Positions 10,102-63,242 of a stretch of 64,000 bases of DNA are shown in pieces (position 1 is the stretch's first letter; each line of letters begins with the position of its first letter). The notes under the pieces were generated by a model. That model was not told the origin of the DNA and did no database searches. It saw only the letters and a program-made list of their open reading frames with translations. The position numbers and the translations under genes are program-made. The stretch is from NCBI GenBank assembly GCA_964560085.1, contig CAZLKF010000002.1:28240-92239 (forward strand), read 5' to 3'. Source of the DNA: an uncultured Muribaculaceae bacterium. GTDB taxonomy: Bacteria; Bacillota_I; Bacilli_A; RF39; UBA660.

Positions 10102-10113
10102 CTTTAATCCCTC

Positions 10114-10329: not shown

Positions 10330-10333
10330 TTTA

Positions 10334-11080: not shown

Positions 11081-11081
11081 T

Positions 11082-12974: not shown

Positions 12975-12975
12975 T

Positions 12976-13419: not shown

Positions 13420-13922
13420 TATAACTCCTCAACTTTCTTACCGCGAAGTTCTGCAACTTCTTCAGTAGTTTTTTGAGCTCTTAATGCTTTCAATGTTGCT
13501 TGAGCCATATTAATTTTTGTACTTGAACCAAGTGATTTTGATAAGATATCTTTTACGCCGGCTAATTCTAATACCGCGCGAACAGGACCACCAGCTTTAA
13601 CACCAGTACCAGCAGCTGCTGGCTTTAACATAACTTTACTAGCACCTTCAACACCATATGCTTCATGAGGAATTGTTCTATTATCAACTAATGAAACTTT
13701 AACGATGTCTTTAGTTGCAGCCGCACTTGCCTTTTTAATAGCATCTGGAACTTCATTAGCTTTGCCAGTACCAATACCAACTAAGCCATTACGATTTCCA
13801 ACTGCAACAGTTGCTGAAAAACGGAAATGACGACCACCTTTTGTTACTTTTGTAACTCTGCCAATATTGATTATTTCTTCATCATATTGTTTTTGACGTG
13901 GTTCTCTTCTAGATTTTTCCAT
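13419..13922 (-). CDS. rpsE: 30S ribosomal protein S5
   Basis: The S5 dsRBD-like motif. Its stop overlaps the rplO start (ATGA), so no rpmD lies between them. Confidence 0.9.
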
Positions 13923-13935
13923 TGTTTTCCTCCTT

Positions 13936-14298
13936 TTAGAATTCTAATCCATTTTCACGTGCAGCTTCTGCTAGAGCTTCTACACGTCCATGATAAAGGT
14001 ATCCACCTCTATCGAAAACTACTTTAGTTATTTTTGCTTCTTTTGCTCTTTTTGCAAGAAGAACGCCAACTTGAATAGCAGCTTCAGTATTACTACCATT
14101 CTTAAGTTTTAATTCTTTATCGATAGAAGAAGCACTAACTAACGTAACCGCATTTTCATCATCTATAATTTGTGCAAAAATATTAGCGTTTGATCTAAAA
14201 ACATTTAAACGTGGAATACTTTTTGTTCCAACAACATTTTCTCTAACACGCTCATGTCTTGCTTTTCGCATATCATTACGAGATTCTTTTTTAATCAT
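13936..14298 (-). CDS. rplR: 50S ribosomal protein L18
   Basis: 120 aa; the ...[12 protein letters not shown]... motif. Confidence 0.9.
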
Positions 14299-21995: not shown

Positions 21996-22022
21996 ATAAA
22001 AAAAACAAGAATTAATTCTCGT
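21996..22022 (-). terminator. intrinsic terminator after the acyl-CoA ligase gene
   Basis: ACGAGAAUU/AAUUCUUGU hairpin followed by an 8-9 U run. The stop codon at 22012-22014 sits at the apex. Confidence 0.5.
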
Positions 22023-23742
22023 TTTCATCTTCTAATTTTTTGTATGCTACTTTTCCAACCAGAGTTCTTGGTAAAGAATCACGATATTCAAATATGGCTG
22101 GCATAGAATACTTAGCTAAATTCTTTGCACAATGTTCTTCAATCTCTTTTTTCAGTCTTTCAGTTATTTCAACATCCTCATTCAAAACAACATATGCTTT
22201 TGCAACTTGCACTTTATGAGGATGACTCACCCCAATTACTGTTGAAGTTAAAACTGCCGGATGTTCATTGATAACTTTTTCAACATGCGATGGATAAATA
22301 TTATAACCAGAAGAAACAATAATTCGTTTTATTCGTTGTTTAAAATAAACATAACCATCTTCATCCATACTTCCCATATCACCTGTGTGTAACCAAGTAT
22401 GGCCATCTTCATGAACACGCAACGTTTGTATTGTTTCATTTATATTATCTAGATAGCCTAACATAACTGAAGGACCAGTTATACATATTTCACCATCCGT
22501 ATTACGTGGAGCTTCGTCATGAGTTCCATTGATAACAATTTTAAAATAGGTGTCTGGATAAGGAATACCAATACTGCCTTTGCGATAATAATTATCAGGA
22601 GTTAAACATGTGGCGCCTGCGCATTCAGTTAGACCATATCCTTCTCTTATATAGGCATTACTTCCGTGATCACGCAAATACTTGTCAACACGCGTTTTTA
22701 ATTCTGTATCAAGTGAGTCACCACCACAAATAGCATTTGTAACGCATGCAAGTTCATTTTTACCGAATTCGCTTTTAGTTAAACTGTCGAATAAAGTAGG
22801 TACTCCAGCGACAAAATTAGGGCGATATTTTCTAATTAATCCCACAAATTTACGAGCTGAAAAATCAGGAATTAAGATACACTTCATTCCACTTGATAAT
22901 GGTGTATGAATGCATACGCTTAATCCAAAGCCATGAAAAATCGGCATAATTGATAAAACTGATTCCCCTGGTTTGCTATGACACATCAAATTACTTTGTA
23001 AGGCCATAGAATTAAAGTTTTTATTTGAAAGCATTATTCCCTTAGGGCTTCCAGTTGTTCCACCACTATAAAGAATTACGGCAACACTATCAGCCATTTT
23101 ATGACATTTATAATTGCCTGCATATTTACGACCAGATTCAATAAACTCTTTCCAGTCAATTATGTCTTCTTTTTCAATTTTAGTATTTAGTTTACGTCCT
23201 TTAGTTAGCCAATAAAGAAAAGTCATAGCAAAACCGAAATCGTGAGCGGCAGAAACAACAACCATTTTCTCAACTTTTGTGTTATCGATTATATGCATGA
23301 TTTTTTCATATGATATATCAATTGTAATTAAAAATTTTGTGTTTGATAAATTTAGATAAAATTCAATTTCATTTTCAGCGGATAAAGGATGAATCATATT
23401 AGCAATTGCTCCAACCATATTAACTGCATAAAAAGCAATTAATCCTTGTGGTGTATTAGGCATGCAAATTGTAACACGATCATTTTCTTTGATTCCTTGA
23501 GCTTTTAAAGCTTTAGCAGCTTCTTCGATTTTCTTATAGAAATCTTTATATGTACACTTTGTTCCATAATATTCATAAGCAATATTATCAGCAAATTTAT
23601 TGCTTGATGCTTCAATCATTTCGGATATTGTTCCTTGAAAATAATTCAAATTAGGAGGAACATCCCCATAATATTTAATCCATGGTGCATTTAATTTTTG
23701 GGCATTGTTATTTTGTATTTTCCTCTTGAATAACCTTTTCAC
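22012..23742 (-). CDS. AMP-dependent acyl-CoA synthetase/ligase (long-chain fatty acid--CoA ligase-like)
   Basis: 576 aa; AMP-binding signature YSGGTTGSPKG and C-terminal ...GK... motifs. Confidence 0.8.
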   Translation of the reverse strand: MKRLFKRKIQNNNAQKLNAPWIKYYGDVPPNLNYFQGTISEMIEASSNKFADNIAYEYYGTKCTYKDFYKKIEEAAKALKAQGIKENDRVTICMPNTPQGLIAFYAVNMVGAIANMIHPLSAENEIEFYLNLSNTKFLITIDISYEKIMHIIDNTKVEKMVVVSAAHDFGFAMTFLYWLTKGRKLNTKIEKEDIIDWKEFIESGRKYAGNYKCHKMADSVAVILYSGGTTGSPKGIMLSNKNFNSMALQSNLMCHSKPGESVLSIMPIFHGFGLSVCIHTPLSSGMKCILIPDFSARKFVGLIRKYRPNFVAGVPTLFDSLTKSEFGKNELACVTNAICGGDSLDTELKTRVDKYLRDHGSNAYIREGYGLTECAGATCLTPDNYYRKGSIGIPYPDTYFKIVINGTHDEAPRNTDGEICITGPSVMLGYLDNINETIQTLRVHEDGHTWLHTGDMGSMDEDGYVYFKQRIKRIIVSSGYNIYPSHVEKVINEHPAVLTSTVIGVSHPHKVQVAKAYVVLNEDVEITERLKKEIEEHCAKNLAKYSMPAIFEYRDSLPRTLVGKVAYKKLEDENEN

Positions 23743-24592
23743 TTACATTTTCCTCCAACATTTCAGGGTGTAACATTATATATTCAAACAATTTAATTGA
23801 CTTTGCAAAATAAAAGCCATCGGCAATTCTCTCATCTAATGTTATGCCAAATTCACAAAAATCATGAATTTCAACTTTGCCTTTTTCATTAACATATGGC
23901 TCTTTTTTTATTTCTCCAATTGTTAAAAGAATTGAATTAGTACCAAAATCAGTTAGATTATGATATATTGCTCCACATTCAATACTACCTAGATTAGATA
24001 ATATTATAGAGCTATGGTAAATTGAATTTCCAATCATTGATTCTGGTAATAAATCATGGCGATCGGCCCATTTCAATATTCCCATAATCATTTTAAATAA
24101 ACCTTTTGGTAATTTTCCTAATTTTTGAATTGTATCATCAGTTGAGTTATTTGAATCACTACGAACTTTTTTAACAACATTACTTATTTTTTCATTAACT
24201 TTATTAATATTGTCTTCTTCGTCTATCTTTATAACTGTTAAATTTTCTTTTGCTTCATCAGAAAACTCTACTTTAGCAACAAAAGATAGCGAAACATTAT
24301 CACGATCAAAATAATCCCCATTTATAACAAAACGATTTAATAATGGTCGATTGTATATTGTTCTAGCAATGCCTGTTGCAAAGGCGTGAAAATACGTGAA
24401 TTTACTATCAGGATTTTCTTTCTTTTTTTGAGCAATATAATTAACTAAATTAGTAACATCTATTTTATGATTTATATATACATCCGAATCGCAACGAAGT
24501 GGTTTAAGGCGTAACATAAATTTATGAACACCATCCATATCACGGACTTTATAGCCATCATGACGATCGCCGAATCTTTTTTTCTTATCCAT
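23708..24592 (-). CDS. 2-oxoacid dehydrogenase E2 / CAT-like acyltransferase catalytic-domain protein
   Basis: 294 aa. C-terminal ...LDERIADGFYFAKSIKLFE... resembles the DHRxxDG catalytic segment of E2/CAT-fold acyltransferases, with Glu in place of His. It overlaps the ligase gene by 35 nt. Confidence 0.5.
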   Translation of the reverse strand: MDKKKRFGDRHDGYKVRDMDGVHKFMLRLKPLRCDSDVYINHKIDVTNLVNYIAQKKKENPDSKFTYFHAFATGIARTIYNRPLLNRFVINGDYFDRDNVSLSFVAKVEFSDEAKENLTVIKIDEEDNINKVNEKISNVVKKVRSDSNNSTDDTIQKLGKLPKGLFKMIMGILKWADRHDLLPESMIGNSIYHSSIILSNLGSIECGAIYHNLTDFGTNSILLTIGEIKKEPYVNEKGKVEIHDFCEFGITLDERIADGFYFAKSIKLFEYIMLHPEMLEENVSEKVIQEENTK

Positions 24593-33318: not shown

Positions 33319-33354
33319 CAAAAAGAAAGATGTATCATTAAATACACCTTTCTT
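33319..33354 (-). terminator. intrinsic terminator after polC
   Basis: About 11-13 bp stem (GAAAGgUGUAU uuaaug AUACAuCUUUC) followed by UUUUUG. Confidence 0.5.
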
Positions 33355-36300
33355 AAAACAAACTCAATTGATTTGATTCATCCATTCCATCTAGTATTCC
33401 CATTTGACGCATTGTTTCGATAATTGTTTGGGAAACTTTTCCACGTTTTTGCAAATCTTCGATACATGAAAATGGATGTTTTGTTCTTTCATCTATAATT
33501 GTCTGGGCTACTGTATCACCTAAACCATCAATAGTTGCAAAAGATGGATACATTGTTTTTTCATCTTTTACAATAAACATTCTTGCATCACTTTTGTTGA
33601 TATCTATCGGTGCAAATTTAATACCACGAGCTGTTGCTTCTAAAGCAATCTTTAAAGTTTCTAAAACTGCTAAATCTTTATTAGTCGCTTCTTTTCCTTT
33701 ATTGCTAATTTCTAACATTCGGTTTTTAATTGCATTATAACCTTTGCACATTGTTGCAATGTCATAATCAGTAATTCTGGCCGAAAAATAAGTAGCATAA
33801 TAATAAACTGGCATATGAACTTTAAACCAAGCAATTCTAAAAGCACTGATAACATAAGCAGCAGCATGAGCCTTCGGGAACATATACTTTATTTTTTGAC
33901 ATGAATCAATAAACCAAGGCTCAATTCCCGCTTTTTCCATTGTGGCTTTATGATCAACCCAAGCATCTGGTTCTTTACTTGCCTTCCCTTTTCGAACAAA
34001 TTCCATAATTTTGAATGCTTTAATTGGTGCTAGCCCATGGTACATTAAATAGACCATTATATCATCACGACAACCAATAACTTCTTTAAAAGGAACTACT
34101 TGATTACGAATTAATTCTTGAGCATTGCCTAGCCAAACATCTGTTCCATGTGAAAGACCAGATATTTTTATAAGTTCTGAAAATGTAGTTGGTTTTGTAT
34201 CAACAAGCATACCAATAGTAAAATTAGTCCCAAATTCTGGAATTCCTAAAGTCCCCGTTGGGCACATTATTTGTTCTTCTGTTACTCCAAGTGGTTTTGG
34301 CGATAAAAAGATATCCATTGTTTCTTTGTCATCCAAAGGCACATCAGTAACATTTATTTTTGTTAAGTCTTGTAAATATCGTAATTGTGTCGGATCGGAG
34401 TGACCCAAAATATCTAACTTTAACAAATCTTGATCTATAGCATGGTAATCAAAATGAGTCGTTCGCCATTCAGCGGTACTATCATCAGCTGGATATTGAT
34501 AAGGTGTGAAGTCATAAACATCTCTATAATGAGGAACTACGACAATACCTCCCGGATGTTGACCAGTTGTTCTTTTAACACCCGTGCAACCAACTGCTAA
34601 ACGTTCGATTTCTGGTGAACGTTTATTGATGCCACGATCTTCATAAAAACCTTTAACATAACCATAAGCTGTTTTGTCAGCAACTGTGCCAATTGTACCA
34701 GCACGATATACATTATCTTCACCAAACAAAACTTTGGTATAAGCATGAGCTGATGCTTGATTTAAATCCGAAAAATTCAAGTCAATATCAGGTACTTTAT
34801 CAGCATTAAAGCCTAGGAAAGTCGCGAAAGGCATATCTTGACCATCTTTAAATAAAGTTTCACCGCAATGTGGACATTTTTTATCCGGCAAATCAAAACC
34901 GCTTGAATAAATTGAACCTAATGATTTACCATCTTCTGCTTCAAAGATACTATGCATACATTTCAAGCAACGATAATGAGCCGGTAATGGATTTACTTCC
35001 GTTATTCCCATCATTGTTGCAACAAATGACGAGCCAACTGAACCACGGGAGCCAACTAAATACCCATCGTCGTTTGAATGTTTTACTAACTTTTGGGCAA
35101 TTAAGTATATAACATCAAAACCGCCACCAATAATACCACCCAGTTCTTTCTGAATGGCTTTTTCTAAATCTTTTTCAGTGATTTCTGGATTCTTTTCTTT
35201 AATGCTATTACCTATCAATTTCTGAACAGCTTCATATCCTTCATTAATAACGTTATGAACCATTTCAAAAGTTTTATTTATGACATCATTGGGAAATTCT
35301 TTCTCGGCTATTTCTTTACAGCAATTATAAACTGCGTCACCATATAATTCCTTAGCAATTCTCTCCTCTATATTAAAAGGAAGAGGATCTCCATACCAAG
35401 ATTTGGCTTTTTCATAAACCAAATCAGTAGTTGTTTTCTGACTATCGGGGATAACTGGTGAGTATGGTTTGTCGGGATATTCAATTACTTCATAATCATC
35501 ACACAATTCGGCTATTTTATATGTATTATCAATAACAATCTCATTACGAGTTTCTTCATCAAGAAAGTTAAATTCTTCTAACATCTCATCAGTTGTTCTT
35601 AAATATTGTGGAGGAATCCGATTATATCCTTCTTTTCCTAGATATCTTGCTAATGGATGTCTTCCTTTACCAGGGACATTTTGATTAACTACAAATTCAC
35701 GGTAAATTGTATCTTCCTTAGTTATTGAATGGGCATCACTAGTAGCTACTACTAATTTCCCGATTTCTTTGGCACAACGAATAATCTTTTTTAAAGCATA
35801 TATTAAATCCTCATATGAACTTATATCATGAGAAAATACTAAATGTTCATAATTTGATGGTGGTTGAACTTCAATATAATCATAAAATTCCATTGCCTTC
35901 TTTAAATCTTCATCACATCTTGCAAGGGCAACATTAAATATTTCACCATTCATACAACCACTACCAATTAAAACGTCCTCACGATTTTCAGCGATTATAT
36001 GTTTAGGAATCCTAGCACTTTTAACTAAATATTTAGTGTTGGCAAAACTAATCATTTTAAATAAATTTTTCAAGCCTTTTTTGGTTCGTGCAATCATATT
36101 GACATGCATTTCTTTAACTATGGCATTAGTTTCAAATTCATCAACTATATTGTTTAAATCAATAAAAGTTTTAATATCTTCACGTTTTTCTAGTTGTTTT
36201 AACATTTTATAGAAAATGCTGCCAGTTGCTTCTGCATCATAGTCAGCTCGATGATGATGAGCAGCAGCCGTTGTATCTTCATCATCATCACTTTTAACAT

Positions 36301-38152
36301 TCTCATCAAATTTAATTTTGTAATATTTAGCTAGTGCCGTTAGCCCATGCTTTTTACAATCTTTATTTATGGCTTTTGAAAGCATCCAAGTATCAATTAC
36401 AGGATTTGTTAAAACTCCCAAATTATATTTATGATAAGCCATCTCTAGCATATCCATATCAAATTTTGCATTGTGAGCAACAAGTGGTAAAGAACCAATC
36501 CACGTTTTAAACTTCATAGTGGCATCTTGTTCATTCATACAATTTTTAACCATTTCATCAGTAATTCCTGTTAAATTGGTAATCTCTTCATCAATATGAT
36601 GACCAGGATTGATTAGTTCATCAAACCTTTCAATCACATTACCATCTTTAATTTTAACAGCCCCGATTTCAATCATTGAGTCATTTAGTCCCGGGTTAAA
36701 GCCGGTCGTTTCTGTATCAAAAACAACATAAGTTGTGTCAAACAAATTAGTATCATCAGCATTGACAACAATATTAGCTGAATCACTTGACAATTCTAAT
36801 TCAACACCATACATTCCTTTAAACAAAGGTAGTTTTTTTAATGATTCTTTTTTTTCAGCTATTTCAGAATTTATCTTGGCAATTTCTGACTCTTCGGTCG
36901 TATTTTTTAATTGTTCTTCTAATTCTTTAATACGATCTTTATAAGGAGCTTTTAATTCTTTATTATATTTACCAATATCTCCATAAACATGAGGGAAAGC
37001 TTGACACCCATCATGATCAGTTATAGCTAAACCCAAATGACCTAATTTTGTTACCGCTTTAACTAAAGCTGACTCATCAGCAACTCCATCCATTTGACTC
37101 ATCATTGTATGAGCATGAAGTTCAATTCTTTTTTTAGGAGCATTGTCTACTCTTTTTTCCTCTTTTTTATCAAATATATTAATATCAGTTAATGAATAAG
37201 TTATTTCTTTGGCGTATTCATCATATTTAATGCTGCCCCTAAATTTATACCATTTGCCAACTTTTACATTTTTAGAAAATTCGGCAAAGTTTTCATCACC
37301 ATCAATAAATGTTTTAGCATATATACTATCAGTATTATCGGTTATTTTAAGGGTCACTATTCTTAAACCGGGTTTTTTCCTTGACTCAATTACATCAAGA
37401 CCAAAAACTTTGGCTTCTACAATAGCTTTATCCATATATTTTAATACTTCTAAAGCATTTATTTCATTAATATCAACAGGGACTGTTTTTAGCAATGTTA
37501 CCGCACTATTTTCAATGACATTCCCCATAATAACGCGTTCATCATCAATTTTAAAAATACGTTTGTTATAATATCTTTTTTTTGGTTCTTCTATGATTGC
37601 TGGTTGAGGTTTTTCAACTATTTTTACTTCTTTTTCTAAATCATTTTTAATTTCATTAACAATTTCTTCATTTAAATTTTTTTCGATTTTGACTTTAAAA
37701 TTATAATTCTTAAAACCAATTAATGCTAAATCTTTCATAATTTTAGGAGATAATGCTAACATTTGTTTTTCTTCAACAATATTACTGACACTCATAATTA
37801 CTTTTTGTTCAGTAATTACTACAGGATTATTTATAAAAAGAGTTAGAACAGAGTCCTTTAAAGCTACTAAATTCATTATATCTTGAAAACTCTTTAGGAC
37901 CTCTTCATCAGTATATTCTTCAATTTCAAATTCCAATTCTACATTATCAATTTCATTAAATTTATTTCTAATCAACTCTTTTAAATTCAAATATTCACTA
38001 TAAGATATAGGTGATTTTAAACAAACAACAAATATACACTTTGTTTTTTCCTTATTGCGGACTATTTTTTTTAAAACTGCTCCTTGAAATATTTCTTCCT
38101 TAGCAGTTGGAAAATCGATTTGTGTAAATAGTTTTTCTAAATTTTTATCCAT
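33353..38152 (-). CDS. polC: PolC-type DNA polymerase III alpha subunit
   Basis: PHP (HAHTMMSQMDG), DEDDh exonuclease (FDTETTGF), zinc finger (CPHCG) and the polymerase core. Start ATG 38152 (MDKNLEK) follows AGGTGA; the ORF-track GTG at 38161 has no RBS. About 1599 aa. Confidence 0.9.
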   Translation of the reverse strand: MDKNLEKLFTQIDFPTAKEEIFQGAVLKKIVRNKEKTKCIFVVCLKSPISYSEYLNLKELIRNKFNEIDNVELEFEIEEYTDEEVLKSFQDIMNLVALKDSVLTLFINNPVVITEQKVIMSVSNIVEEKQMLALSPKIMKDLALIGFKNYNFKVKIEKNLNEEIVNEIKNDLEKEVKIVEKPQPAIIEEPKKRYYNKRIFKIDDERVIMGNVIENSAVTLLKTVPVDINEINALEVLKYMDKAIVEAKVFGLDVIESRKKPGLRIVTLKITDNTDSIYAKTFIDGDENFAEFSKNVKVGKWYKFRGSIKYDEYAKEITYSLTDINIFDKKEEKRVDNAPKKRIELHAHTMMSQMDGVADESALVKAVTKLGHLGLAITDHDGCQAFPHVYGDIGKYNKELKAPYKDRIKELEEQLKNTTEESEIAKINSEIAEKKESLKKLPLFKGMYGVELELSSDSANIVVNADDTNLFDTTYVVFDTETTGFNPGLNDSMIEIGAVKIKDGNVIERFDELINPGHHIDEEITNLTGITDEMVKNCMNEQDATMKFKTWIGSLPLVAHNAKFDMDMLEMAYHKYNLGVLTNPVIDTWMLSKAINKDCKKHGLTALAKYYKIKFDENVKSDDDEDTTAAAHHHRADYDAEATGSIFYKMLKQLEKREDIKTFIDLNNIVDEFETNAIVKEMHVNMIARTKKGLKNLFKMISFANTKYLVKSARIPKHIIAENREDVLIGSGCMNGEIFNVALARCDEDLKKAMEFYDYIEVQPPSNYEHLVFSHDISSYEDLIYALKKIIRCAKEIGKLVVATSDAHSITKEDTIYREFVVNQNVPGKGRHPLARYLGKEGYNRIPPQYLRTTDEMLEEFNFLDEETRNEIVIDNTYKIAELCDDYEVIEYPDKPYSPVIPDSQKTTTDLVYEKAKSWYGDPLPFNIEERIAKELYGDAVYNCCKEIAEKEFPNDVINKTFEMVHNVINEGYEAVQKLIGNSIKEKNPEITEKDLEKAIQKELGGIIGGGFDVIYLIAQKLVKHSNDDGYLVGSRGSVGSSFVATMMGITEVNPLPAHYRCLKCMHSIFEAEDGKSLGSIYSSGFDLPDKKCPHCGETLFKDGQDMPFATFLGFNADKVPDIDLNFSDLNQASAHAYTKVLFGEDNVYRAGTIGTVADKTAYGYVKGFYEDRGINKRSPEIERLAVGCTGVKRTTGQHPGGIVVVPHYRDVYDFTPYQYPADDSTAEWRTTHFDYHAIDQDLLKLDILGHSDPTQLRYLQDLTKINVTDVPLDDKETMDIFLSPKPLGVTEEQIMCPTGTLGIPEFGTNFTIGMLVDTKPTTFSELIKISGLSHGTDVWLGNAQELIRNQVVPFKEVIGCRDDIMVYLMYHGLAPIKAFKIMEFVRKGKASKEPDAWVDHKATMEKAGIEPWFIDSCQKIKYMFPKAHAAAYVISAFRIAWFKVHMPVYYYATYFSARITDYDIATMCKGYNAIKNRMLEISNKGKEATNKDLAVLETLKIALEATARGIKFAPIDINKSDARMFIVKDEKTMYPSFATIDGLGDTVAQTIIDERTKHPFSCIEDLQKRGKVSQTIIETMRQMGILDGMDESNQLSLF

Positions 38153-38218
38153 GTTGATCACCTATAAAAATTGTATCACATTTTAGGTTTTGTTAAAAGA
38201 AAAAGACAACATGTTGTC

Positions 38219-43659: not shown

Positions 43660-44728
43660 AGAAAAAAGTATTCCTATCGGGCCAACTTTTACGTTAATGT
43701 TACTTGCAACCGTACCTGGCATTACTTTCTACACGTTTAAAGAAACAAGTGCCCAAAATAGTTGGTTATCTTTACTAATTGGATCATTATTGGGAGTATT
43801 ATTTATTTGGATGATCATTTCAATTAGAAATTATAGTGAAAAAAGCATTTTTGAAATCAATAAAATTGCTTTAGGGAAAATTTTCGGAACAATTGTTAAC
43901 TTTATATTCTGTCTCGTTTTTATTCTCTTTGCAATAATAATCTCTTGGCATTCATATGTATTCTTAAAAAGTCAATATTTAAATGAGACTCCTTTCATTG
44001 TCATTGCAATATCTTTATTATTACCAGGGTTATTTATGATTTCAAAAAGCAACACGATCTTAATAAAAATGAATATGTTTATTTTTCCGGCTATTGCCTT
44101 ATTATGCATTTTTGCAGTTGTCGGTTTAGTTTTTCAATTGGATATAGATAATATTAAACCTTTTGCCGAAATCGAAAATGCATCAATGTTATATGGGATA
44201 TTCACGTATTTTTCAATCACTATTCTTCCAACATACGCAATTACAAGCATCAGCAATTTAAAGAATAAAAAAAATATCTTTAAATACTTTGCAATCGGAA
44301 TCATATTAAATTTTTGTATTACACTCTTTACTTATCTAGTATTAGGGCGAATACTTGTTGATTTTGTTGATTTTCCAGAATTTTTTGTTTTGCGTAAAAT
44401 CGGAAATTCTACAAACAGTGCACGAATTGATAGTTTTATTATTGTTGAATGGATAATCTGCATCTTTTCGACAGTGAGTTGTTGTTTCTTCTTTGTAAAA
44501 AATTGTTTAAAAAATTATATTAAAAACTACAATAGCATAATTACATACATCTTTGGTTTTATTATCTCATTTGTATCTCTTTATGCCTTTGAAAGTATTA
44601 CTGATGGTAAAAACTTTATTCTTAAGGTATTGCCTTACATATCGTTCTTCACAATTTTTGTTACTAATTTTATAATTTTCATCATATTGAAAATAAAAAA
44701 GAAACCATTAAAGGTTTCACATAAATAG
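43652..44728 (+). CDS. spore germination protein B subunit (APC-superfamily permease)
   Basis: 358 aa, about 10 TM helices, overlapping the gerC stop; the operon order is A-C-B. Confidence 0.8.
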   Translation: MNKEKSIPIGPTFTLMLLATVPGITFYTFKETSAQNSWLSLLIGSLLGVLFIWMIISIRNYSEKSIFEINKIALGKIFGTIVNFIFCLVFILFAIIISWHSYVFLKSQYLNETPFIVIAISLLLPGLFMISKSNTILIKMNMFIFPAIALLCIFAVVGLVFQLDIDNIKPFAEIENASMLYGIFTYFSITILPTYAITSISNLKNKKNIFKYFAIGIILNFCITLFTYLVLGRILVDFVDFPEFFVLRKIGNSTNSARIDSFIIVEWIICIFSTVSCCFFFVKNCLKNYIKNYNSIITYIFGFIISFVSLYAFESITDGKNFILKVLPYISFFTIFVTNFIIFIILKIKKKPLKVSHK

Positions 44729-45436
44729 CAAAAAAGCAACTAAAGCAATAATTACAATGACTAAAATGATCATAACTATTTTTACAACAATTGAAGTTCC
44801 TTCTTCTTCTTCATTTTCTTGATCCGAAAGATGAATTTTAATTGAATCTGTAAAAAATGTATTATCGCCAGTATTTTCAATCTCTTCTATCGAGCTTTTA
44901 GTTTCTTCTTCATCAGTTTCTTCTTCATAAACCGATTCGTCTGAATCATCAGCTAAATTATCAAACATATTTAAGCTTAACTCAGTATTTCCCATATTCC
45001 TTAAAGCATCAATGCTTGTTTTATCATCTTTCTCTATTACTTCTTCTGTTTCATCATCAGAGGCAACAGTTGTAACTTCAACATCTAACTTATGATATGG
45101 TTCAACATCGCGCTCAGAAGCCGCTTTATTTAAATAATCATTAATATCATAATTTTTTTCTTCGGTATGTTCTACTTCGGTTATCTCTTCTTCTTTAGGC
45201 TTAATAATATTTAATTCGCGCATTTTTATTTCTTTACGATAATTTTCACGACTCTTTAATAATTCGCGAACTTTTTCAATATCAATTTCATTAGTACGTT
45301 CTATGTTGGTAGGTTTTTCAATATTAGAAAAATATGAATTTTCCTCATATATTTTCTGATATAATTCTTGATTTCTAACAACACGACTATTGTTTTTGTT
45401 TAATTCATAATCATGTCTATCTAATCTACTCGACAT
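44717..45436 (-). CDS. highly acidic, low-complexity protein with a C-terminal transmembrane anchor
   Basis: 239 aa, E/D-rich, ending in a hydrophobic helix (IVVKIVMIILVIVIIALVAFLLFM). It converges on the ger operon. Confidence 0.45.
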   Translation of the reverse strand: MSSRLDRHDYELNKNNSRVVRNQELYQKIYEENSYFSNIEKPTNIERTNEIDIEKVRELLKSRENYRKEIKMRELNIIKPKEEEITEVEHTEEKNYDINDYLNKAASERDVEPYHKLDVEVTTVASDDETEEVIEKDDKTSIDALRNMGNTELSLNMFDNLADDSDESVYEEETDEEETKSSIEEIENTGDNTFFTDSIKIHLSDQENEEEEGTSIVVKIVMIILVIVIIALVAFLLFM

Positions 45437-45542: not shown

Positions 45543-45740
45543 ATGATGAAAAAAGTAAAAATAGATAATGAAACTTGTATATGCTGTGGTAGTTGTGTTG
45601 CAACTTGTGAAGACGTTTTTGGTTGGACTGATGATGGAACCGCTTGCGTAAAAGAAGATGCTAAGCTTGAAGAAAATAAAGAATTAGTTGAAAAAGCTAT
45701 AGAACAATGCCCAACTAGTGCAATTAAATATGATGAATAA
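45543..45740 (+). CDS. 4Fe-4S ferredoxin (Bacillus Fer-like, single cluster)
   Basis: C-x2-C-x2-C ... CP motif (CICCGSCVATCE...EQCPTSAI). Start ATG 45543 follows AAGGAGGA; the ORF-track start 45498 lacks an RBS. Confidence 0.8.
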   Translation: MMKKVKIDNETCICCGSCVATCEDVFGWTDDGTACVKEDAKLEENKELVEKAIEQCPTSAIKYDE

Positions 45741-45766
45741 AACCTGATAATATCAGGTTTTTTTGT
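45740..45766. terminator. bidirectional intrinsic terminator (ferredoxin / pilin genes)
   Basis: Perfect 9 bp palindrome AACCUGAUA a UAUCAGGUU flanked by a U run on the plus strand and an A run on the other side. Confidence 0.6.
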
Positions 45767-45767
45767 A

Positions 45768-47198
45768 CTATTTCATAACTAAACGCGTACTATTAGTCCC
45801 ACTACAGACAGATGCTGCAAAAGCAAATATCCCATTACTTGTTATACCTCCACCACGTGTTAGACAAAGAGAAGTGCCACCATCAAAACTCGAATGGTAA
45901 CTACCGTAACTTCCCATCGCCACATTAATAGCTTCATCTACAGAGTTGACATTGATGCTTTTTTTAGTGACCCATTCGTTTTCGCCACCATTCATTCCAT
46001 AAACACCTGTCATATTTCTCGTTGTGCTTGCAAAAACAGAACGCTCACTATAATAAATTTCATTAGTGTAATTAGCAAAATTATCGATAGTATAAGAAAG
46101 TGGTTTAACTTCATAAAGTCTATTACTAGAAATATTCTCTAAAGCATAATCTAAGATTGTTCCTGTATAAATATCTGTCGGATACACTTTTTCAGCATTA
46201 ATTCCATACTTGCTGTGAGTTAAATAAGCAATGGCAGCCCACTCTTTATTACTTATCATATTTAAATTTACTTCGCTTCTTAAAAAGCTATAAGCAGAAT
46301 TATACAATCCTTGAATATTTAAAATCATATTATCATAATTATTCCGATAAATTTTTTGACTATAACTACTATTTATTGTATTTCCAACTGGACTAGCTGG
46401 ATTTAATGTCGTAAGCTCATATTTACTAACCCAAAAACCACTTATTGCTTCTGTATCGTTAGTAAATGCCGAATGAGTAGTATAAACACCATTAGAACTG
46501 GTTGTTAAGCCTTTTTCAAAAATTATTTTTGCTGTTTTAAAAATATTATTTTCAGTTATAATCTCATATTTGTATCGCGGAATCCAAACTGCAAAAATAA
46601 CCTCATCGTTTATTTCATTAAATGGAATCACTAAATCACCGACTTGTAAACTCTTATATTTAGAAAGCAATTTCTGAGGAACTATTAAAGCATTAGCCCA
46701 TTTTCCTTCTTCATAGTTATACCATCTATCAGAATTAACTGTATCCGCGATAATAATATTGTTGTTGCTATCCCATGTAATTGGAATCATATTCGATAAT
46801 AGTAAAGGCTTATTAGGCAAGATTTCTTCAATATTAGCACTACAACTATTAACAACATCATAAATAACATTCTTACTTGAAAAAGTAATTTTTACTTTAA
46901 TTTTTGAATCTGTAATATTACTATTGGTTTTCGCACTTAAATCGGCAATATTTTCACTTAACAAAATTTCGCTTAAATCAATGCAATAAACATTACCGGT
47001 TTTATTCGAAAAATTATCTTTGTGTTTAGCATAATAACTTTGAGCAGCATTGGCTATTATCGATGATGTTGCTTCATCTATTTCCAAATTAGTTTCATCC
47101 ATTTTATCTAAAATAATTGAAACAGTAAAAACTCCAAGCATCGTTAAAATAACAATAACTGCCAGTAATTCTACTAAAGTAAACCCTTTTTTATTCAT
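45768..47198 (-). CDS. large prepilin-type (type IV pilin-like) protein with a C-terminal FGE-sulfatase/SUMF1-like domain
   Basis: N-terminal class III signal MNKKGFTLVELLAVIVIL (G/FTLVE cleavage-methylation motif). The C-terminus has ...EWAAIAYL... and GVYGMNGGENEWV, resembling the GxYDMxGNVWEW signature of FGE-sulfatase folds. Confidence 0.55.
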   Translation of the reverse strand: MNKKGFTLVELLAVIVILTMLGVFTVSIILDKMDETNLEIDEATSSIIANAAQSYYAKHKDNFSNKTGNVYCIDLSEILLSENIADLSAKTNSNITDSKIKVKITFSSKNVIYDVVNSCSANIEEILPNKPLLLSNMIPITWDSNNNIIIADTVNSDRWYNYEEGKWANALIVPQKLLSKYKSLQVGDLVIPFNEINDEVIFAVWIPRYKYEIITENNIFKTAKIIFEKGLTTSSNGVYTTHSAFTNDTEAISGFWVSKYELTTLNPASPVGNTINSSYSQKIYRNNYDNMILNIQGLYNSAYSFLRSEVNLNMISNKEWAAIAYLTHSKYGINAEKVYPTDIYTGTILDYALENISSNRLYEVKPLSYTIDNFANYTNEIYYSERSVFASTTRNMTGVYGMNGGENEWVTKKSINVNSVDEAINVAMGSYGSYHSSFDGGTSLCLTRGGGITSNGIFAFAASVCSGTNSTRLVMK

Positions 47199-47207
47199 TA
47201 TTGCCTC

Positions 47208-47777
47208 CTAACACGCTTCATTATAATTGCTAATAATCGTTTCACCACTTCGCGTTAATTTTATAGTTGCATCAGTTGCATAGAAATTTTCGGCTTCGTT
47301 TATTATATTAGGTGACAAATAATATGCATTTTGTAAAGCCAAAATATTTATACATTTACTCTCACCTTCAGCAATTGCAATATTTCCATCATTATAATAA
47401 CTTACAGCTGCTTCATTTATTTCTGACTCGGTTACAATACACTTTTGATTAACATCAAAAGAATTTCCTTTTTTAGCTATTTTTACTAGCATCTCCGATG
47501 GTAAAAGTTTACCATCACTATCTTTAACATCAGCAGATAATAACCCATCTTCTTGTAAAGTTAAAATTGTAACACAATAATCTAAATCATAAATATTATT
47601 TTTATTTTCTTCATAATAATCCTTAGCGGCTTCAACTACTAATAATTCTGTTGCTTCGTCTAACTTGTTAGTTGCATCAAAGAAACTACTAATAATGTTG
47701 GGAAACATTATTAGTGCCAACAAAGAGATAATTATAATGACGCCTAATAATTCGATCAATGTAAAACCTTTGTTCAT
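47208..47777 (-). CDS. prepilin-type N-terminal cleavage/methylation domain protein (type IV pilin / pseudopilin)
   Basis: Start ATG 47777 (MNKGFTLIELLGVIIIISLLA) follows AGGTGAT. Pilin-like globular domain with a C-terminal Cys. Confidence 0.7.
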   Translation of the reverse strand: MNKGFTLIELLGVIIIISLLALIMFPNIISSFFDATNKLDEATELLVVEAAKDYYEENKNNIYDLDYCVTILTLQEDGLLSADVKDSDGKLLPSEMLVKIAKKGNSFDVNQKCIVTESEINEAAVSYYNDGNIAIAEGESKCINILALQNAYYLSPNIINEAENFYATDATIKLTRSGETIISNYNEAC

Positions 47778-47812
47778 ATTATCACCTAGCTTAATTATAT
47801 CTTTTTTAGCAC

Positions 47813-47836
47813 TAAAAAACAACTATTATTTAGTTG
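47813..47836 (-). terminator. intrinsic terminator immediately after rpmF
   Basis: CAACUA aauaa UAGUUG followed by UUUUUU; the rpmF stop codon is in the loop. Confidence 0.45.
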
Positions 47837-48011
47837 CTTCTTCTTTTTTAAGAACTTCTTTTCCCTTATAAGTTCCACAATTTTTACATACTCTGTGTGG
47901 CTTAACATCGCTTCCACATTTTGGGCATGTAGTTGTAGTATTAGCATCAATTTTGTAATGAGTACGACGCATTCTACCTCTTGTTTTACTAATTTTTCTA
48001 AATGGTACAGC
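47826..48011 (-). CDS. rpmF: 50S ribosomal protein L32
   Basis: Start ATG 48011 (MAVPFRKISKTRGRMRR) follows AGAGGTG; zinc ribbon C-x2-C...C-x2-C. Confidence 0.85.
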   Translation of the reverse strand, partial: AVPFRKISKTRGRMRRTHYKIDANTTTTCPKCGSDVKPHRVCKNCGTYKGKEVLKKEEATK

Positions 48012-48033
48012 CATTTTTAACACCTCTTCTCTT

Positions 48034-48510
48034 TTATAATAGATCTTTTAATTTACTTAATTCTGAATTTCCTGCGGAATCACTCTTATTTAAGCGCCAT
48101 CCATCACCTTCAAGTTCCATAGATGATGCATCTTCACTTACAATATGAGTAGGAATTTCCATGAGTATATTTTCCCATATAATAGGCAAAATATCAATAG
48201 TATTCCCAATATTTTTAATATTTATGCTACTTTCTTCATATAAATTTAATAATTCGTCATTAATCGTAAAATCAAAACTATATGGAACATCCTTTAATGT
48301 AATTGCGCACTCTAAAATTGCCGTCCCTTTGACATTTACATCTAATACAAATTCACCCAAACTATCACGAGTGACTATACCTTTAATCTTAACATTGTTT
48401 AATTCTTTAATATCGCTTTTATCTAGTTGTTCAGTTGTAAACGAATATTCAAAATCAATGCCCGTATATTTATCAACGCCACCACGTAATCTCGTTAAAT
48501 CTATATTCAT
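48034..48510 (-). CDS. yceD: YceD/DUF177 family protein (large-subunit accumulation factor)
   Basis: 158 aa acidic protein in the conserved position upstream of rpmF. Confidence 0.65.
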   Translation of the reverse strand: MNIDLTRLRGGVDKYTGIDFEYSFTTEQLDKSDIKELNNVKIKGIVTRDSLGEFVLDVNVKGTAILECAITLKDVPYSFDFTINDELLNLYEESSINIKNIGNTIDILPIIWENILMEIPTHIVSEDASSMELEGDGWRLNKSDSAGNSELSKLKDLL

Positions 48511-48615
48511 AAAATCTCCTCGCTAAAAGATTATACATAAATATTTATAAAATTGCAAGTTTTTTTTATTTGTTTTAAGATTTTATATGTTATCATATTA
48601 ACAAGAGGTGATATC

Positions 48616-53346: not shown

Positions 53347-54684
53347 TTATTTAGTCAACTCTTGTAAAACAATTTGCTTGAATTCATTTCCTCTTTCTTC
53401 AAAGCTCTTATATTGATCCCATGATGCACATGCTGGGCTTAAAAGAATAACATCATTAGAACTTGATTCTTTGTAAGCTGTCGTAACAGCTTCTCTTAAA
53501 TTATTGACAACATAACATCTAATATTTAATTTATTAATAAATTCTTCAATTTTATATTTAGTTTCTCCGTAACAAACAACACATTTAACATTTGTCATAA
53601 ATGGTTCTAGATCATCAAATGGCAGATTGCGATCTAATCCTCCCAACAACAAAATTGTTGGTACTTTAAAGGCATTTAAAGCTATCTGAGTTGATCTAAC
53701 ATTTGTCGATTTTGAATCATTGTAAAATTCACGATCATTTATTTTACCAACAAACTCAATACGATGTTCAACTCCTTTAAATGTTTCTAAAGTTTCTTTT
53801 ATTACTTTAGTTCCAACATTAAGTCGCTTAGCAACTAATATAGCACACATCATATTCTCATAATTGTGATTACCTTTTAAAATTACTTTATCAGTATCAA
53901 CTATTGCTTCATCTTGATAATAAATAACTCCATCCTTCAAATAACTATCTGCTTTATTTAGACTTGAAAAATATTCTTTTGTACTTCCTATATTTTTTGT
54001 CTCATCCATAACATCTTGATTTTCCATGTTTAAGATTGCTAAGTCATCAATAGTTTGGTGTCTAAAAATCAAGCATTTATTATGCTTATAATTTTCATAA
54101 GTTCCAAAATGATCTAAATGGACAACACTTAAATTTGTCATAACAGCAATATCCACCTTAAAGTTAACAAAATCATGTAATTGATGTCCTGATATTTCTA
54201 AAACTAAAATGTCATTCTCTTTTACATCTGCCAACAAACTGGACATTGGATAACCAATATTTCCACCTAAATGAACTGGTAATCCTGCATTTTTTAAAAC
54301 TTCATATATTAAAGTTGTTGTTGTCGTTTTTCCATTAGAACCAGTAATACCTATAATTTTTACGTTTTTAGGTAACAAATTATAAGCAACCTCTAATTCA
54401 TTAATAACTGGGATATTCAAACTTTCGGCTTTAACGACGGTAGGATTAGTAAATTTAATCCCGGGGTTCTTAATAACATAGTCAAACGTTTTATCTAATA
54501 ACTCATCTTGTTTATCTGTTATAAACACTTGTACTCCTAAAGACTTTAATTCATTTATTTTGTCCTCATCATCACCCTTTAAATCAGTAACAATGACTTC
54601 ATTATTACGAGCAATAAGGACTTTTGCAACTTCGTATCCACTTCTAGCCAATCCTAATACTAGAAATTTTTGATTTTTATACAT
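53347..54684 (-). CDS. murD: UDP-N-acetylmuramoylalanine--D-glutamate ligase
   Basis: Mur ligase P-loop GITGSNGKTTTT and the MurD N-terminal Rossmann domain. Confidence 0.85.
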   Translation of the reverse strand: MYKNQKFLVLGLARSGYEVAKVLIARNNEVIVTDLKGDDEDKINELKSLGVQVFITDKQDELLDKTFDYVIKNPGIKFTNPTVVKAESLNIPVINELEVAYNLLPKNVKIIGITGSNGKTTTTTLIYEVLKNAGLPVHLGGNIGYPMSSLLADVKENDILVLEISGHQLHDFVNFKVDIAVMTNLSVVHLDHFGTYENYKHNKCLIFRHQTIDDLAILNMENQDVMDETKNIGSTKEYFSSLNKADSYLKDGVIYYQDEAIVDTDKVILKGNHNYENMMCAILVAKRLNVGTKVIKETLETFKGVEHRIEFVGKINDREFYNDSKSTNVRSTQIALNAFKVPTILLLGGLDRNLPFDDLEPFMTNVKCVVCYGETKYKIEEFINKLNIRCYVVNNLREAVTTAYKESSSNDVILLSPACASWDQYKSFEERGNEFKQIVLQELTK

Positions 54685-55519
54685 ATTGATTCTCCTTTAT
54701 TTTATATAGAACTTCTTTAATTAAAATCTCACAACCAATTTCATGAATAGTTTTTTTACTATTCTTATTGTTTGCTAATATTTCAAGTCCAACTCTTATA
54801 TTTTTAGGTACCTCTTTATCTTCTTTTAACTGTTCTAAAATTGGAAAAGTTGTCACTAAATTATCTTTTGTGCAAAAACTTTTCTCATTTATAATCATAA
54901 CAATAAATTGAATAAAGCCATCATCAATTTCAATATTTATTTTTTTTAAGCTTTTAAATAATTTTTCCAAGTTTAAATCTTCTAATTTTTTAGCCAAACT
55001 TTTAGTTTTCAAAGATTTATATAGTTTCCTAATATCTTCATCAGTCTTTACAATTTCTGCACTTTGTATTAATAAAAATATTGATAACAAATGTTTGTTG
55101 ACTGATTTATTTTTTTCTTTATCACTAAATGTATAATTAGCAATAGCTTCGATTGTCTTAGCTTTCTCAATTAAAGGAATTATTTCCATTACTTTATCTC
55201 TAGTTAGATCATATTCTTCATCTTTCTCGATTAACTTGATTTTTTTGTCAATTTCCCCTATTTTTTTTAACAAATTATTTTTTGTTTCTGAATAGTGTTC
55301 CAAATTAACATTATAATTTTTATATTTCTGAGTTTGCAGTAATTTCTCAATATTATTATATTCTTTTTTTGGTTCCTTTAAATTAGCTATTCTGCGTTTT
55401 ATTCTTGCTTTTTCTGATTTTAAATTACTTAATATTTCTTTCTTTGGTGGATAACTTTCTAATAATGACTGTAATTTTTGCACCTCAATTTTTTTTATTT
55501 CTTCTATCAAGGTGATCAC
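54677..55519 (-). CDS. hypothetical K/E-rich, predicted coiled-coil protein
   Basis: 280 aa with no recognisable motif; it overlaps the murD start by 8 nt and abuts the ABC permease stop. Confidence 0.4.
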   Translation of the reverse strand: MITLIEEIKKIEVQKLQSLLESYPPKKEILSNLKSEKARIKRRIANLKEPKKEYNNIEKLLQTQKYKNYNVNLEHYSETKNNLLKKIGEIDKKIKLIEKDEEYDLTRDKVMEIIPLIEKAKTIEAIANYTFSDKEKNKSVNKHLLSIFLLIQSAEIVKTDEDIRKLYKSLKTKSLAKKLEDLNLEKLFKSLKKINIEIDDGFIQFIVMIINEKSFCTKDNLVTTFPILEQLKEDKEVPKNIRVGLEILANNKNSKKTIHEIGCEILIKEVLYKIKENQYV

Positions 55520-58681: not shown

Positions 58682-59680
58682 TTATTCAGCACTATCAGTT
58701 GATTGAACAGGAGTTTCTTCAACATTCAAATCAACATTCATGATTTGATCAAAAAAATTATTTTCTTCCATATTTGAAGCAGTTGAAACAGTAGCATTCT
58801 TTATTATACTTAAAATTTCTTCGATTTGACTTGTAGTTAAATATGTTGTTTCCGTTTTTTCTGCTGCTGATATCATCCATATTCCACCAGTTGATCTTGC
58901 AGTATATACTCCGGTTGCAACTTTATTACCCGTATTCAAAGCCATATCTATTTGCCAGTACTTAAGACCCGAATATTGTTTTTCTTTAATCAAATTTATC
59001 TTCATAGTAGTATAAGCAGCAAAAGCTTGTCGGAGATTAGCTTCTGTAAAAACACCATAACTAGGAGTTTCTGCATATTGAATAATAGTTTTATAACTAC
59101 CTGTATCGATCGCTAATCCTTCACTTGAAACACCAGATACATAACTACCATTTATTGTAAATTTATATCCACCATAGACAATATTAAGATTATCATGAAC
59201 CGTTACTGTTGTTCCGCCGACATTAGTTACCTCTTTCTTACCAAAAACTCCAGCATCAATTAATAAATATACAACAACGGCAACTGCTAAAATTCCAACA
59301 ACAATACCAATAATTAAAAATGGTGTCTTACTCTTACTTTCTGTAGGTGTTGTTGTCGGTGATGTAAATACTGGTTGAGGTTGTTGAGGCATTGGCTGTT
59401 CAAAGTTTACAGGTTGAGGTTGAGGCATAATTGGTGCCATTGGTTGTTGAAAATTTTGTGTTGGGTTTGGTTGTGGTGAAACTGGTTGCACATTCTGAAA
59501 AGGTTGAGCTTGTTGTCCTTGTGGCATAACTGAATTTCCATAATTCTGTATTCCCACAGGATTAGGTTCTACAGTTGGGGTAACTGGTTGAGCATTATTT
59601 TGATTATTATTAGATGCCCCACAATTTTTACAAAAAACGTCGCCAGGGTTTAAAGCAGCTCCGCAAATCTTACAATACAT
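58682..59680 (-). CDS. zinc-ribbon / P,Q-rich linker / single-TM / extracytoplasmic domain protein
   Basis: N-terminal C-x2-C...C-x2-C (MYCKICGA...CKNCGA), about 100 aa Pro/Gln-rich, one TM helix, then a 190 aa C-terminal domain. Confidence 0.55.
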   Translation of the reverse strand: MYCKICGAALNPGDVFCKNCGASNNNQNNAQPVTPTVEPNPVGIQNYGNSVMPQGQQAQPFQNVQPVSPQPNPTQNFQQPMAPIMPQPQPVNFEQPMPQQPQPVFTSPTTTPTESKSKTPFLIIGIVVGILAVAVVVYLLIDAGVFGKKEVTNVGGTTVTVHDNLNIVYGGYKFTINGSYVSGVSSEGLAIDTGSYKTIIQYAETPSYGVFTEANLRQAFAAYTTMKINLIKEKQYSGLKYWQIDMALNTGNKVATGVYTARSTGGIWMISAAEKTETTYLTTSQIEEILSIIKNATVSTASNMEENNFFDQIMNVDLNVEETPVQSTDSAE

Positions 59681-62402: not shown

Positions 62403-63242
62403 ATGAAATATGTATGCGAAAAATGCAACAAAAAATTCAACAAATACGTAAGCACATGTGATGAATGTGATGGAAAGGTAATCGCCAAGAAAACAAATCG
62501 TTTTTTAGGCACATTGATATTAATTTTAGTAACTGCAATTGTTAGTTCTTTAGCAACTTACCAATTTATGAAAGAAAATTCTTGCAATAACAAAGGAAAT
62601 GTTAACCTTAAGGGCTCTTGGTATAGTACTTATGCAGGTTCAACATTTATGCTATCTCTAACAGAAGATGGCAATTGTGAATATGGATATGAAGATGCTG
62701 ATAAGACAAAATGTACATATGAATATTCTAATGAAGTTCTTCAATTAAAGACTTCAGAAGGCACGGATAAATTGATATATAACCTTGAAAAAGATGTTTT
62801 ATATATAAATTCCTCTCCATACTACAATAGTAAAGAAACAAGCAGTAAAAATGATGCATATTATTATGTCCCAGAAGGATACGATATATCAATGTTTACG
62901 AAGATTACACCAGAAGAATTTATTTCAAAGTTCAATAATGGCGATGAAATGTTTGTTCTAACTGCTAGAAGTAGTTGTCAACATTGTCAAGATTTTAGAC
63001 CAATAGCTGCCCAAACAGTTGAATCACATAACTATAAATTATATTATCTTGACACTGCAACATTAACTGATACAACATACGCAAATATCAAAGCATTAGA
63101 TACAAAGCTTAATGAAACATTTGGAGCAACTCCTAATGTCTATTATGTTAAGGGCAAAAAAGTTGTTGATACTAATGAGGGTGCTACTACTCTAGCACAA
63201 TATACGCAATTTATTGAAACACATGGCGTAAAGAAAAAATAA
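62403..63242 (+). CDS. zinc-ribbon / TM / thioredoxin-like (CxxC) extracytoplasmic protein
   Basis: N-terminal C-x2-C...C-x2-C, one TM helix and a C-terminal domain with CQHC in a thioredoxin-fold-like context. Confidence 0.5.
   Translation: MKYVCEKCNKKFNKYVSTCDECDGKVIAKKTNRFLGTLILILVTAIVSSLATYQFMKENSCNNKGNVNLKGSWYSTYAGSTFMLSLTEDGNCEYGYEDADKTKCTYEYSNEVLQLKTSEGTDKLIYNLEKDVLYINSSPYYNSKETSSKNDAYYYVPEGYDISMFTKITPEEFISKFNNGDEMFVLTARSSCQHCQDFRPIAAQTVESHNYKLYYLDTATLTDTTYANIKALDTKLNETFGATPNVYYVKGKKVVDTNEGATTLAQYTQFIETHGVKKK

Follow-up and report, generated by a model that had tools for sequence, protein, structure and literature searches.

Modular pilins, in which a type IV pilin module is fused to a module not specific to pilus biology, are established and widespread; one survey recorded 264 architectures in more than 1,200 proteins (PMC8179133). 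In Streptococcus sanguinis, the small pilin PilA stabilizes the lectin-bearing modular pilin PilC at the pilus tip, where the two form a glycan-binding complex (PMC9934059). Heads at the tips of the type V pili of Bacteroides are either diversified by diversity-generating retroelements (DGRs), as in BunT and BfrT, or static, as in BovFim1C (bioRxiv 10.1101/2024.11.15.621889). Here we analyze two adjacent genes, pilin1 and pilin2, in a 64,000-nucleotide stretch of the 216-kb contig CAZLKF010000002.1 (assembly GCA_964560085.1, from an uncultured bacterium). We refer to this whole stretch as the window, and coordinates follow its numbering unless a related locus (L-prefixed) is named. Pilin2 is best filed as an uncharacterized modular type IV pilin that carries a head of the FGE-type C-type-lectin (CLec) fold and is related to DGR variable proteins, though itself static.

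The nearest functional parallel to the pair is PilA-PilC of S. sanguinis. As in PilC and PilB, a class III signal and a small pilin module are fused in pilin2 to a bulky, presumed binding module; as with PilC and PilA, the large protein is encoded beside a small pilin, in a monoderm Firmicute, with a likely role in adhesion. The modules of the S. sanguinis proteins are ConA-like lectin or vWA domains, whereas that of pilin2 has the FGE-type C-type-lectin fold. Moreover, our pair follows the ribosomal protein gene rpmF instead of lying within a pil operon, both of its members keep Glu5, and, unlike PilA-PilC, it is known from sequence and structure models. The Bacteroides type V tips resemble pilin2 in coming from gut bacteria, in placing a lectin-fold head on a pilus subunit, and in comprising static and DGR-diversified versions within one family. 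They differ in being type V subunits with sortase-like strand exchange from Bacteroidota, and their pilin part has no sequence kinship with that of pilin2.

Pilin signals and the head of pilin2

Pilin1 (47208-47777, minus strand; 189 residues) begins with an ATG codon and the sequence MNKGFTLIELL, a start at which gene calling on two metagenome contigs arrived independently. Pilin2 (45768-47198, minus strand; 476 residues) begins with MNKKGFTLVELL, and its start codon lies 9 nt past the pilin1 stop, after an AGGAGG. A preliminary description of this DNA had placed two genes with prepilin class III signals directly downstream of rpmF on the minus strand, and profile searches bear this out. Both proteins pass the curated cut-off of the pilin motif PF07963 (24.6 and 25.5 bits against 21.2), the check that the description had proposed, as well as that of TIGR02532 (23.2 and 23.5 bits against 16.3). 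Each follows the signal rule, under which a short basic leader closes with Gly, Phe occupies +1 and Glu +5, and about 20 hydrophobic residues then form the alpha-1 helix; the sequences are MNKG/FTLIELL in pilin1 and MNKKG/FTLVELL in pilin2 (slashes mark the predicted cleavage site). Residues G5, F6, T7, L8, E10 and L11 are invariant or near-invariant among 58 pilin2 homologues. Judged by sequence, the products of both genes are type IV pilin-like proteins.

In pilin1, the leader and alpha-1 helix are followed by two small subdomains, each bracketed by cysteines (C68-C113; C142-C189). Its structure model reached a predicted local distance difference test (pLDDT) score of 93, with a 50-residue alpha-1 helix (predicted helix residues 7-57). 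The pilin1 family is narrow, comprising approximately 31 orthologues at 51-64% identity, and these lie on contigs equal in length to those that carry pilin2 orthologues (e.g., 197763, 875341, 37688, 17616 and 35931).

Pilin2 can be divided into three parts. Residues 1-120 (46839-47198, minus strand) hold the class III signal and a small pilin module, with conserved C72 and C119 and a predicted helix at residues 8-38. The pilin2 profile matches solved pilins, including PilE1 (E 1.6e-11), geopilin and MshA. Residues 121-240 (46479-46838, minus strand) form a conserved beta-rich region (NMIPI..W.NY..KWANA..WIPRYKY) that leads to the head; P131, W159, Y162, W167, A168, N169 and P207 are invariant in the alignment, and the region is modeled at a pLDDT of ~90-96. 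The head itself occupies residues 241-476 (45771-46478, minus strand).

That the C-terminal part of pilin2 resembles the FGE-sulfatase fold had been proposed in the preliminary description. Direct searches with the 476-residue protein (Pfam, NCBIfam, and phmmer against the PDB) matched the pilin motif alone, and the link to FGE required a family profile and a structure model. The suggested PF03781 (FGE-sulfatase) search gave a split answer: the window protein had no match at E <=1 and did not reach the gathering threshold, whereas 21 of 58 homologues matched weakly (best E 3.3e-4). In the 58-sequence alignment, conserved blocks read HPAFTFG..GxWVGKFE, HMMKNxEWGAVAYL, ASTTGNITGVYDMSGGAxEYV, RGG and SxRxV. 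The family profile matches TaqVP, a DGR variable protein of Thermus aquaticus, at E ~8e-5 and PvdO at E 0.2-0.4. In the profile alignment, the pilin2 motifs EWAAIAYL (residue 319) and GVYGMNGGENEWV (residue 398) pair with NAEWAAVALL and GIADLVGNVWEWV of TaqVP and with GVYDMHGNVYEWV of PvdO. Structure comparison of the pilin2 model likewise returned TaqVP at the top (score 18.6 over 212 residues, 3.0 Å), followed by TvpA (12.2), PvdO (11.5) and CarF (11.0); OvoA, ToxD and EgtB scored about 10, and Mtd, SUMF2 and PorK 9.8. The comparison with SUMF1, EgtB and PvdO that had been suggested thus came out in favor of the fold, with TaqVP the best match. On the conserved blocks, the weak PF03781 matches and the TaqVP relationship, the head as modeled is an FGE-type CLec domain, and the assignment was correct.

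Its description as enzyme-like did not hold. No Cys or His occurs among the invariant or near-invariant columns of the 58 homologues, and a Pfam scan of pilin2 found no DinB or iron-binding domain of the kind present in EgtB. The catalytic, copper-binding cysteine pair of FGE lies close together; a family lacking conserved Cys and His lacks that pair, and the enzyme option therefore fails. The only head cysteines of the window protein, C445 and C465, lie 19 residues apart and flank the RGG motif. Each of the 17 close orthologues has this pair, and none of the 41 other family members does. Pilin2 thus differs from FGE/SUMF1, EgtB and OvoA in having neither the conserved cysteine pair, nor a DinB/iron domain, nor a match to the Pfam model, and its nearest structural relatives (TaqVP, TvpA and PvdO) are non-catalysts.

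Pilin2 is a modular pilin, joining a pilin module (1-120) to an FGE-type CLec head that is not specific to pilus biology. The same two-part domain logic is found in the architecture IPR012902-IPR005532, the second member of which we take to be the SUMF/FGE domain. Dataset S1 of the modular pilin survey lists this architecture with 8 proteins, none of them studied (PMC8179133). Pilin2 falls below the PF03781 threshold, so Pfam-type surveys would miss it. Given these catalogued proteins and more than 800 pilin2 homologues, the earlier statement that this is not a described arrangement was too strong. What the locus adds to modular pilins is an uncharacterized head type, the FGE/C-type-lectin fold, in uncultured gut Firmicutes.

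Nearly all of the more than 800 homologues consist of a pilin motif and an unannotated C-terminal region; some already bear the name "type II secretion system protein" or that of a "prepilin-type ... domain-containing protein", and some additionally carry adhesin-type repeats (PF09479, PF16403, PF02368). When the C-terminal 352 residues were searched against 1.84 billion cluster representatives, 1,906 relatives were found at E <=1e-3. These ~1,900 representatives form a large group of proteins, as yet unstudied, that are probably gut adhesins. Giant relatives of 3.7-4.5 thousand residues carry five to nine copies of the head (among them proteins P0177, P0178 and P0298), and within related loci L013-L082 the head also stands behind hydrophobic N-termini that are not pilin-like (…GxSYAFF…, …IGYALLS…; e.g., L022 2540-4453, L025 2367-4061 and L043 5566-7599). 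The head is therefore a general extracellular module, and fusion to a pilin is one mode of presenting it. A SipW/TasA-type identity was considered for the …GxSYAFF… N-termini and dropped, as NCBIfam gave no support for it.

Relationship to diversity-generating retroelements

The preliminary description had overlooked that the closest structural and sequence relatives of the head are DGR variable proteins, and that DGRs do target some members of the family. In a set of 80 related loci drawn from GTDB genomes, two (L008, cassette 9989-13962, and L031, cassette 9998-13989) showed the order pilin-headed family member, repeat, MutS_I open reading frame, Avd gene position and RVT_1 reverse transcriptase. 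Pfam confirmed RVT_1 and MutS_I in both loci and bAvd in L008. A third cassette, in L067 (302-3123) and complete like the other two, has a target with a "GITLIAL" N-terminus and the same lectin-fold head, while the targets in L008 and L031 have a type IV pilin signal. The 3′ end of the target gene and the repeat downstream of it differ only where the downstream copy carries adenine, with 12 adenine and 0 non-adenine mismatches over 90 nt in L008, 19 and 0 in L031, and 13 and 0 in L067. Judged by this pattern, the repeats of the three loci, which come from other gut metagenome-assembled genomes, are textbook variable/template pairs and the genes true DGR targets. The L008 target passes TIGR02532 (30.4 bits), which makes it a DGR-diversified type IV pilin-like protein.

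Rare DGR targets with a GspG-type pilin domain were noted in one DGR survey (PMC11661182), and pilins are unmentioned in a large one (PMC8144416); these surveys touch on type IV pilin-borne targets only briefly, if at all. Such targets in gut Bacilli would be a Firmicute counterpart of the Bacteroides type V tips.

The variable regions of L008 (repeat 11517-11632) and L031 (repeat 11520-11650) map onto pilin2 residues 445-476 (45771-45866, minus strand). In DGR proteins, the surface formed by the variable region binds ligands (PMC6328139, PMC2408619), and from this homology we infer that residues 445-476 are likely a ligand-contact surface of pilin2. They can thus be named as a testable predicted binding surface. 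Pilin2 itself appears static. A repeat search at 45768-46000 and an adenine-tolerant scan found no template repeat for it; the scan covered 97 family genes and detected template repeats in L008, L031 and L067 only. No RVT_1 or bAvd was present in the scanned open reading frames of the window, and two independent samples and an NCBI genome yield pilin2 proteins that are 100% identical. The absence of repeat and reverse transcriptase from these searches, together with the identical protein across samples, argues that pilin2 is a static family member. The presumed contact surface is fixed in pilin2 and bracketed by the clade-specific C445 and C465. This sets pilin2 apart from TaqVP (5VF4) and TvpA (2Y3C), which are FGE-type CLec DGR variable proteins and not pilins: pilin2 has no variable/template pair and no nearby reverse transcriptase or Avd, and its segment is fixed and Cys-bracketed.

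Two further observations concern the DGR loci. L058 has an open reading frame grouped with the reverse transcriptases by BLAST clustering, with no repeat found for the last 90 nt of its family gene. In L008 (12207-12584) and L031 (12232-12603), the MutS domain I open reading frame between the template repeat and the Avd position encodes 123-125 residues (E 2e-9 and 5e-8, respectively); we know of no described DGR accessory protein of this type.

Display of the pair and competing explanations

We think it on balance probable, if only just, that the two genes encode a small pilin and a modular pilin with a non-enzymatic, ligand-binding lectin-fold head, both of them minor subunits of a filament encoded elsewhere. 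The host would be a sporulating, low-GC gut Firmicute related to the Erysipelotrichaceae, in which the two genes form a conserved pair. A prepilin peptidase would cut both proteins after Gly, and a machine of the type IV filament or competence type, with its genes elsewhere in the genome, would assemble them as minor subunits, probably at the tip. By analogy with PilA and PilC of S. sanguinis, pilin1 would partner and stabilize pilin2, whose pilin module (1-120) would carry a beta-rich neck and the FGE-type CLec head (together ~121-476). On the filament, the head would be exposed so as to adhere to a ligand of host, dietary or microbial origin, with residues 445-476, hypermutated by DGRs in relatives, as a contact surface that in this lineage would be fixed and braced by the two clade-specific cysteines. 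Expression may arise from read-through of a leaky rpmF hairpin, from a conserved TATAAT, or from both.

Several observations weigh against assembly into a filament. As the preliminary description had stated, we found no prepilin peptidase, PilB/PilT ATPase or PilC platform in the 64 kb: T2SSE/PilB, T2SSF/PilC and Peptidase_A24 were absent from window open reading frames of at least 200 residues (assessed for four genes by precomputed annotation), and tblastn of a T2SSE ATPase from L074 against the window returned nothing. Exact-protein look-ups extended our view ~9 kb beyond the right edge and ~0.3 kb beyond the left; the right flank encodes CotJB/CotJC, Ddl, an ABC-F protein, BipA and an NlpC/P60 surface protein, and no pilus genes. 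Across 85 related loci (±10 kb, 1.24 Mb), a T2SSE ATPase adjoins a family member in one, L074 (7985-11389). This PilB/ComGA-type ATPase (E 3e-119, Walker A GATGTGKST) is divergently adjacent to a 650-residue head-family protein with a degenerate pilin-like N-terminus (KGFALLET), and we count the locus itself as support for a link to pili. At other loci, family genes have housekeeping neighbors (e.g., era-recO-glyS), so scattered placement is the rule for this family. The occurrence of the head on varied N-termini and in giant proteins indicates that it does not need a pilus. The globular part of pilin1 found no convincing match in structure comparison. Finally, both pilins keep Glu5, unlike the capping subunit of known tip complexes (PMC9934059), and tip placement is thus not indicated by sequence.

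One alternative is display of the lectin-fold receptor on the cell surface independent of any machine, with the class III signal and helix serving, cleaved or not, as a membrane anchor and no filament being formed. The lack of machinery in the window and its right flank, the scattering of family genes in housekeeping DNA with a single T2SSE neighbor, and the fusion of the same head to other hydrophobic N-termini all speak for such an anchor. We nevertheless regard it as unlikely. Gly-1, Phe+1 and Glu+5 are kept in both proteins across orthologues down to 38% identity, and such retention of the full signature would be difficult to account for if no peptidase and no filament contacts were involved. 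The second, small pilin is strictly co-conserved, and minor pilin genes commonly lie far from the machinery that they serve. In an elaboration of the machine-free idea, the pilin fold would have been co-opted to serve, by itself, for anchoring a lectin-fold receptor in the membrane and for pairing. This receptor, expressed with ribosomal genes, would have a fixed specificity and descend from DGR-diversified type IV pilin heads like those of related gut Bacilli. If so, the level of the receptor would follow growth rate; we hold this version to be quite improbable.

A similarly small chance attaches to the pair being accessory pilins of a competence (Com) pseudopilus, a ComG-type DNA-uptake filament on which the head would bind DNA or cell-wall material. 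The N-terminal 60-65 residues do resemble ComGC (NF040999, E 2e-10 for pilin1 and 1e-5 for pilin2), and among Firmicutes no type IV filament is more common than the Com machinery (PMC7212644, PMC12153270). However, the ComGC scores (40.6 and 25.6 bits) stay far below the equivalog cut-off of 75, those for ComGE (22.1 and 17.6 bits) stay below 49, and ComGD/E/F matches are weaker than those to ComGC. No comG genes adjoin the pair, and the nearest relatives of its head are ligand-binding DGR proteins, not DNA receptors. Catalysis by the head, for example oxidation of a cysteine or thiol substrate as by FGE or EgtB, would draw on the fold shared by FGE, EgtB and OvoA and on the weak PF03781 matches of relatives. 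The family-wide lack of conserved Cys and His, the clade-specific C445 and C465 with their spacing of 19 residues, the missing DinB/iron domain and the non-enzymatic best matches make a surface enzyme very improbable. Ongoing hypermutation of the pilin2 3′ end by a retroelement elsewhere in the genome would accord with the DGR targeting of exactly this segment in homologues, yet it is just as hard to credit: the window holds neither template repeat nor reverse transcriptase, the protein is identical across samples, and orthologues diverge at residues 445-476 as much as in the rest of the protein. The region is also 39% GC, whereas the variable repeats of L008 and L031 look GC-rich by eye in their alignments. 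We therefore retain the reading of the pair as minor subunits of a filament encoded elsewhere.

Gene order, expression signals and neighboring genes

The window has a GC content of ~30% and encodes housekeeping and sporulation functions of a Firmicute, including Spo0A, the GerA/GerB/GerC germination proteins, PolC and PolA, the S10-spc-alpha ribosomal cluster with SecY, Adk, Map and RpoA, and RF1, PrmC, SerRS, MurI, Fpg and IF3. On the minus strand, the order is a promoter-like site, yceD, rpmF, a 48-nt spacer, pilin1, a 9-nt gap, pilin2 and a hairpin. YceD (48034-48510, minus strand; 158 residues; PF02620, E 6.5e-11) is 63-77% identical in three orthologous loci (L083-L085), where synteny is kept. 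The rpmF gene call (47826-48014, minus strand) encodes the 62-residue ribosomal protein L32 (PF01783, E 9e-23; TIGR01031, E 7e-23). Upstream of yceD, a consensus scan found TTGCAA-17-TATAAT (48530-48558, minus strand; 10/12 positions), the probable yceD-rpmF promoter; this is a pattern match only, and shuffled sequence of the region yields at least as many promoter-like sites. The unit likely ends at a 10-bp hairpin (45739-45761; fold z -2.7) detected by terminator scan between the converging stops of pilin2 and a ferredoxin gene; with T-runs on both sides, it is a likely bidirectional terminator.

The order yceD-rpmF-pilin-pilin-ferredoxin (converging)-open reading frame-GerB/C/A is kept on the three long contigs of L083, L084 and L085, which represent three further genomes. 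Identity to the window copy in these loci is 38-56% for pilin2, 52-60% for pilin1 and 87-92% for rpmF, with 87% for RF1 and 75% for fpg. Pilin2 is thus the fastest-evolving gene of the neighborhood (38-56% against 75-92% for housekeeping genes), in line with expectation for a surface protein. The GC content of both pilin genes equals that of the genome. Together with the kept gene order, this indicates that the pair is a vertically inherited, fast-evolving, co-conserved unit. Its location behind rpmF is a lineage-specific conserved placement and no new kind of system. Taken alone, the window offers a modest result: a conserved pair of minor pilins, probably ordinary ones, at an unusual location.

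The junction between rpmF and pilin1 (47782-47840, minus strand) was examined by sequence reading, folding and orthologue comparison. An A/U-rich hairpin (47816-47840) overlaps the rpmF stop codon and adjoins a T-run; its folding energy (-8.1 to -8.8 kcal/mol, z -0.55) is no better than that of shuffles. Upstream of pilin1 lie a promoter-like TTGTTT (47817-47822) and, after 17 nt, TATAAT (47794-47799), which the consensus scan missed because the -35 element matches at only 3/6 positions, followed by the ribosome-binding site AGGTGA (47782-47787). The weak hairpin and TATAAT that the preliminary description had noted between the two genes were therefore both located. Hairpin, T-run, TATAAT and GGTGA are near-invariant across four orthologous loci; their retention, while identity of the flanking pilins has dropped to 38-60%, speaks for a functional spacer. 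On these signals, read-through from rpmF and independent expression both appear possible, as had been suggested. E. coli rpmF is likewise followed by co-transcribed non-ribosomal genes (plsX-fab).

Other genes of the window also drew our attention. Following the ferredoxin gene, a very acidic 239-residue protein with a C-terminal membrane helix (44717-45436, minus strand) has no confident Pfam match and occupies the same position in 3/3 orthologous loci at 49-55% identity. A 488-residue open reading frame between tpiA and rplQ (6332-7798, minus strand) has no Pfam match at E <=0.01 and is also present in independent gene calls on metagenome contig L088. PolC (33353-38161, minus strand) has ~1,600 residues, and 1597-1601 in orthologous loci; PolC proteins usually have ~1,430-1,460, making that of the window more than 100 residues longer. 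In an unusual pairing (22012-24592, minus strand), a gene for a 576-residue AMP-binding, acyl-CoA ligase-like protein overlaps by 35 nt a 294-residue open reading frame whose sole match is to the catalytic, C-terminal portion of 2-oxoacid dehydrogenase acyltransferases. Three open reading frames, at 58682-59680 (minus strand, 332 residues), 54677-55519 (minus strand, 280 residues) and 62403-63242 (plus strand, 279 residues), have no Pfam hit beyond a zinc ribbon at the N-terminus of the first, and the last is marked PedC-like in precomputed annotation.

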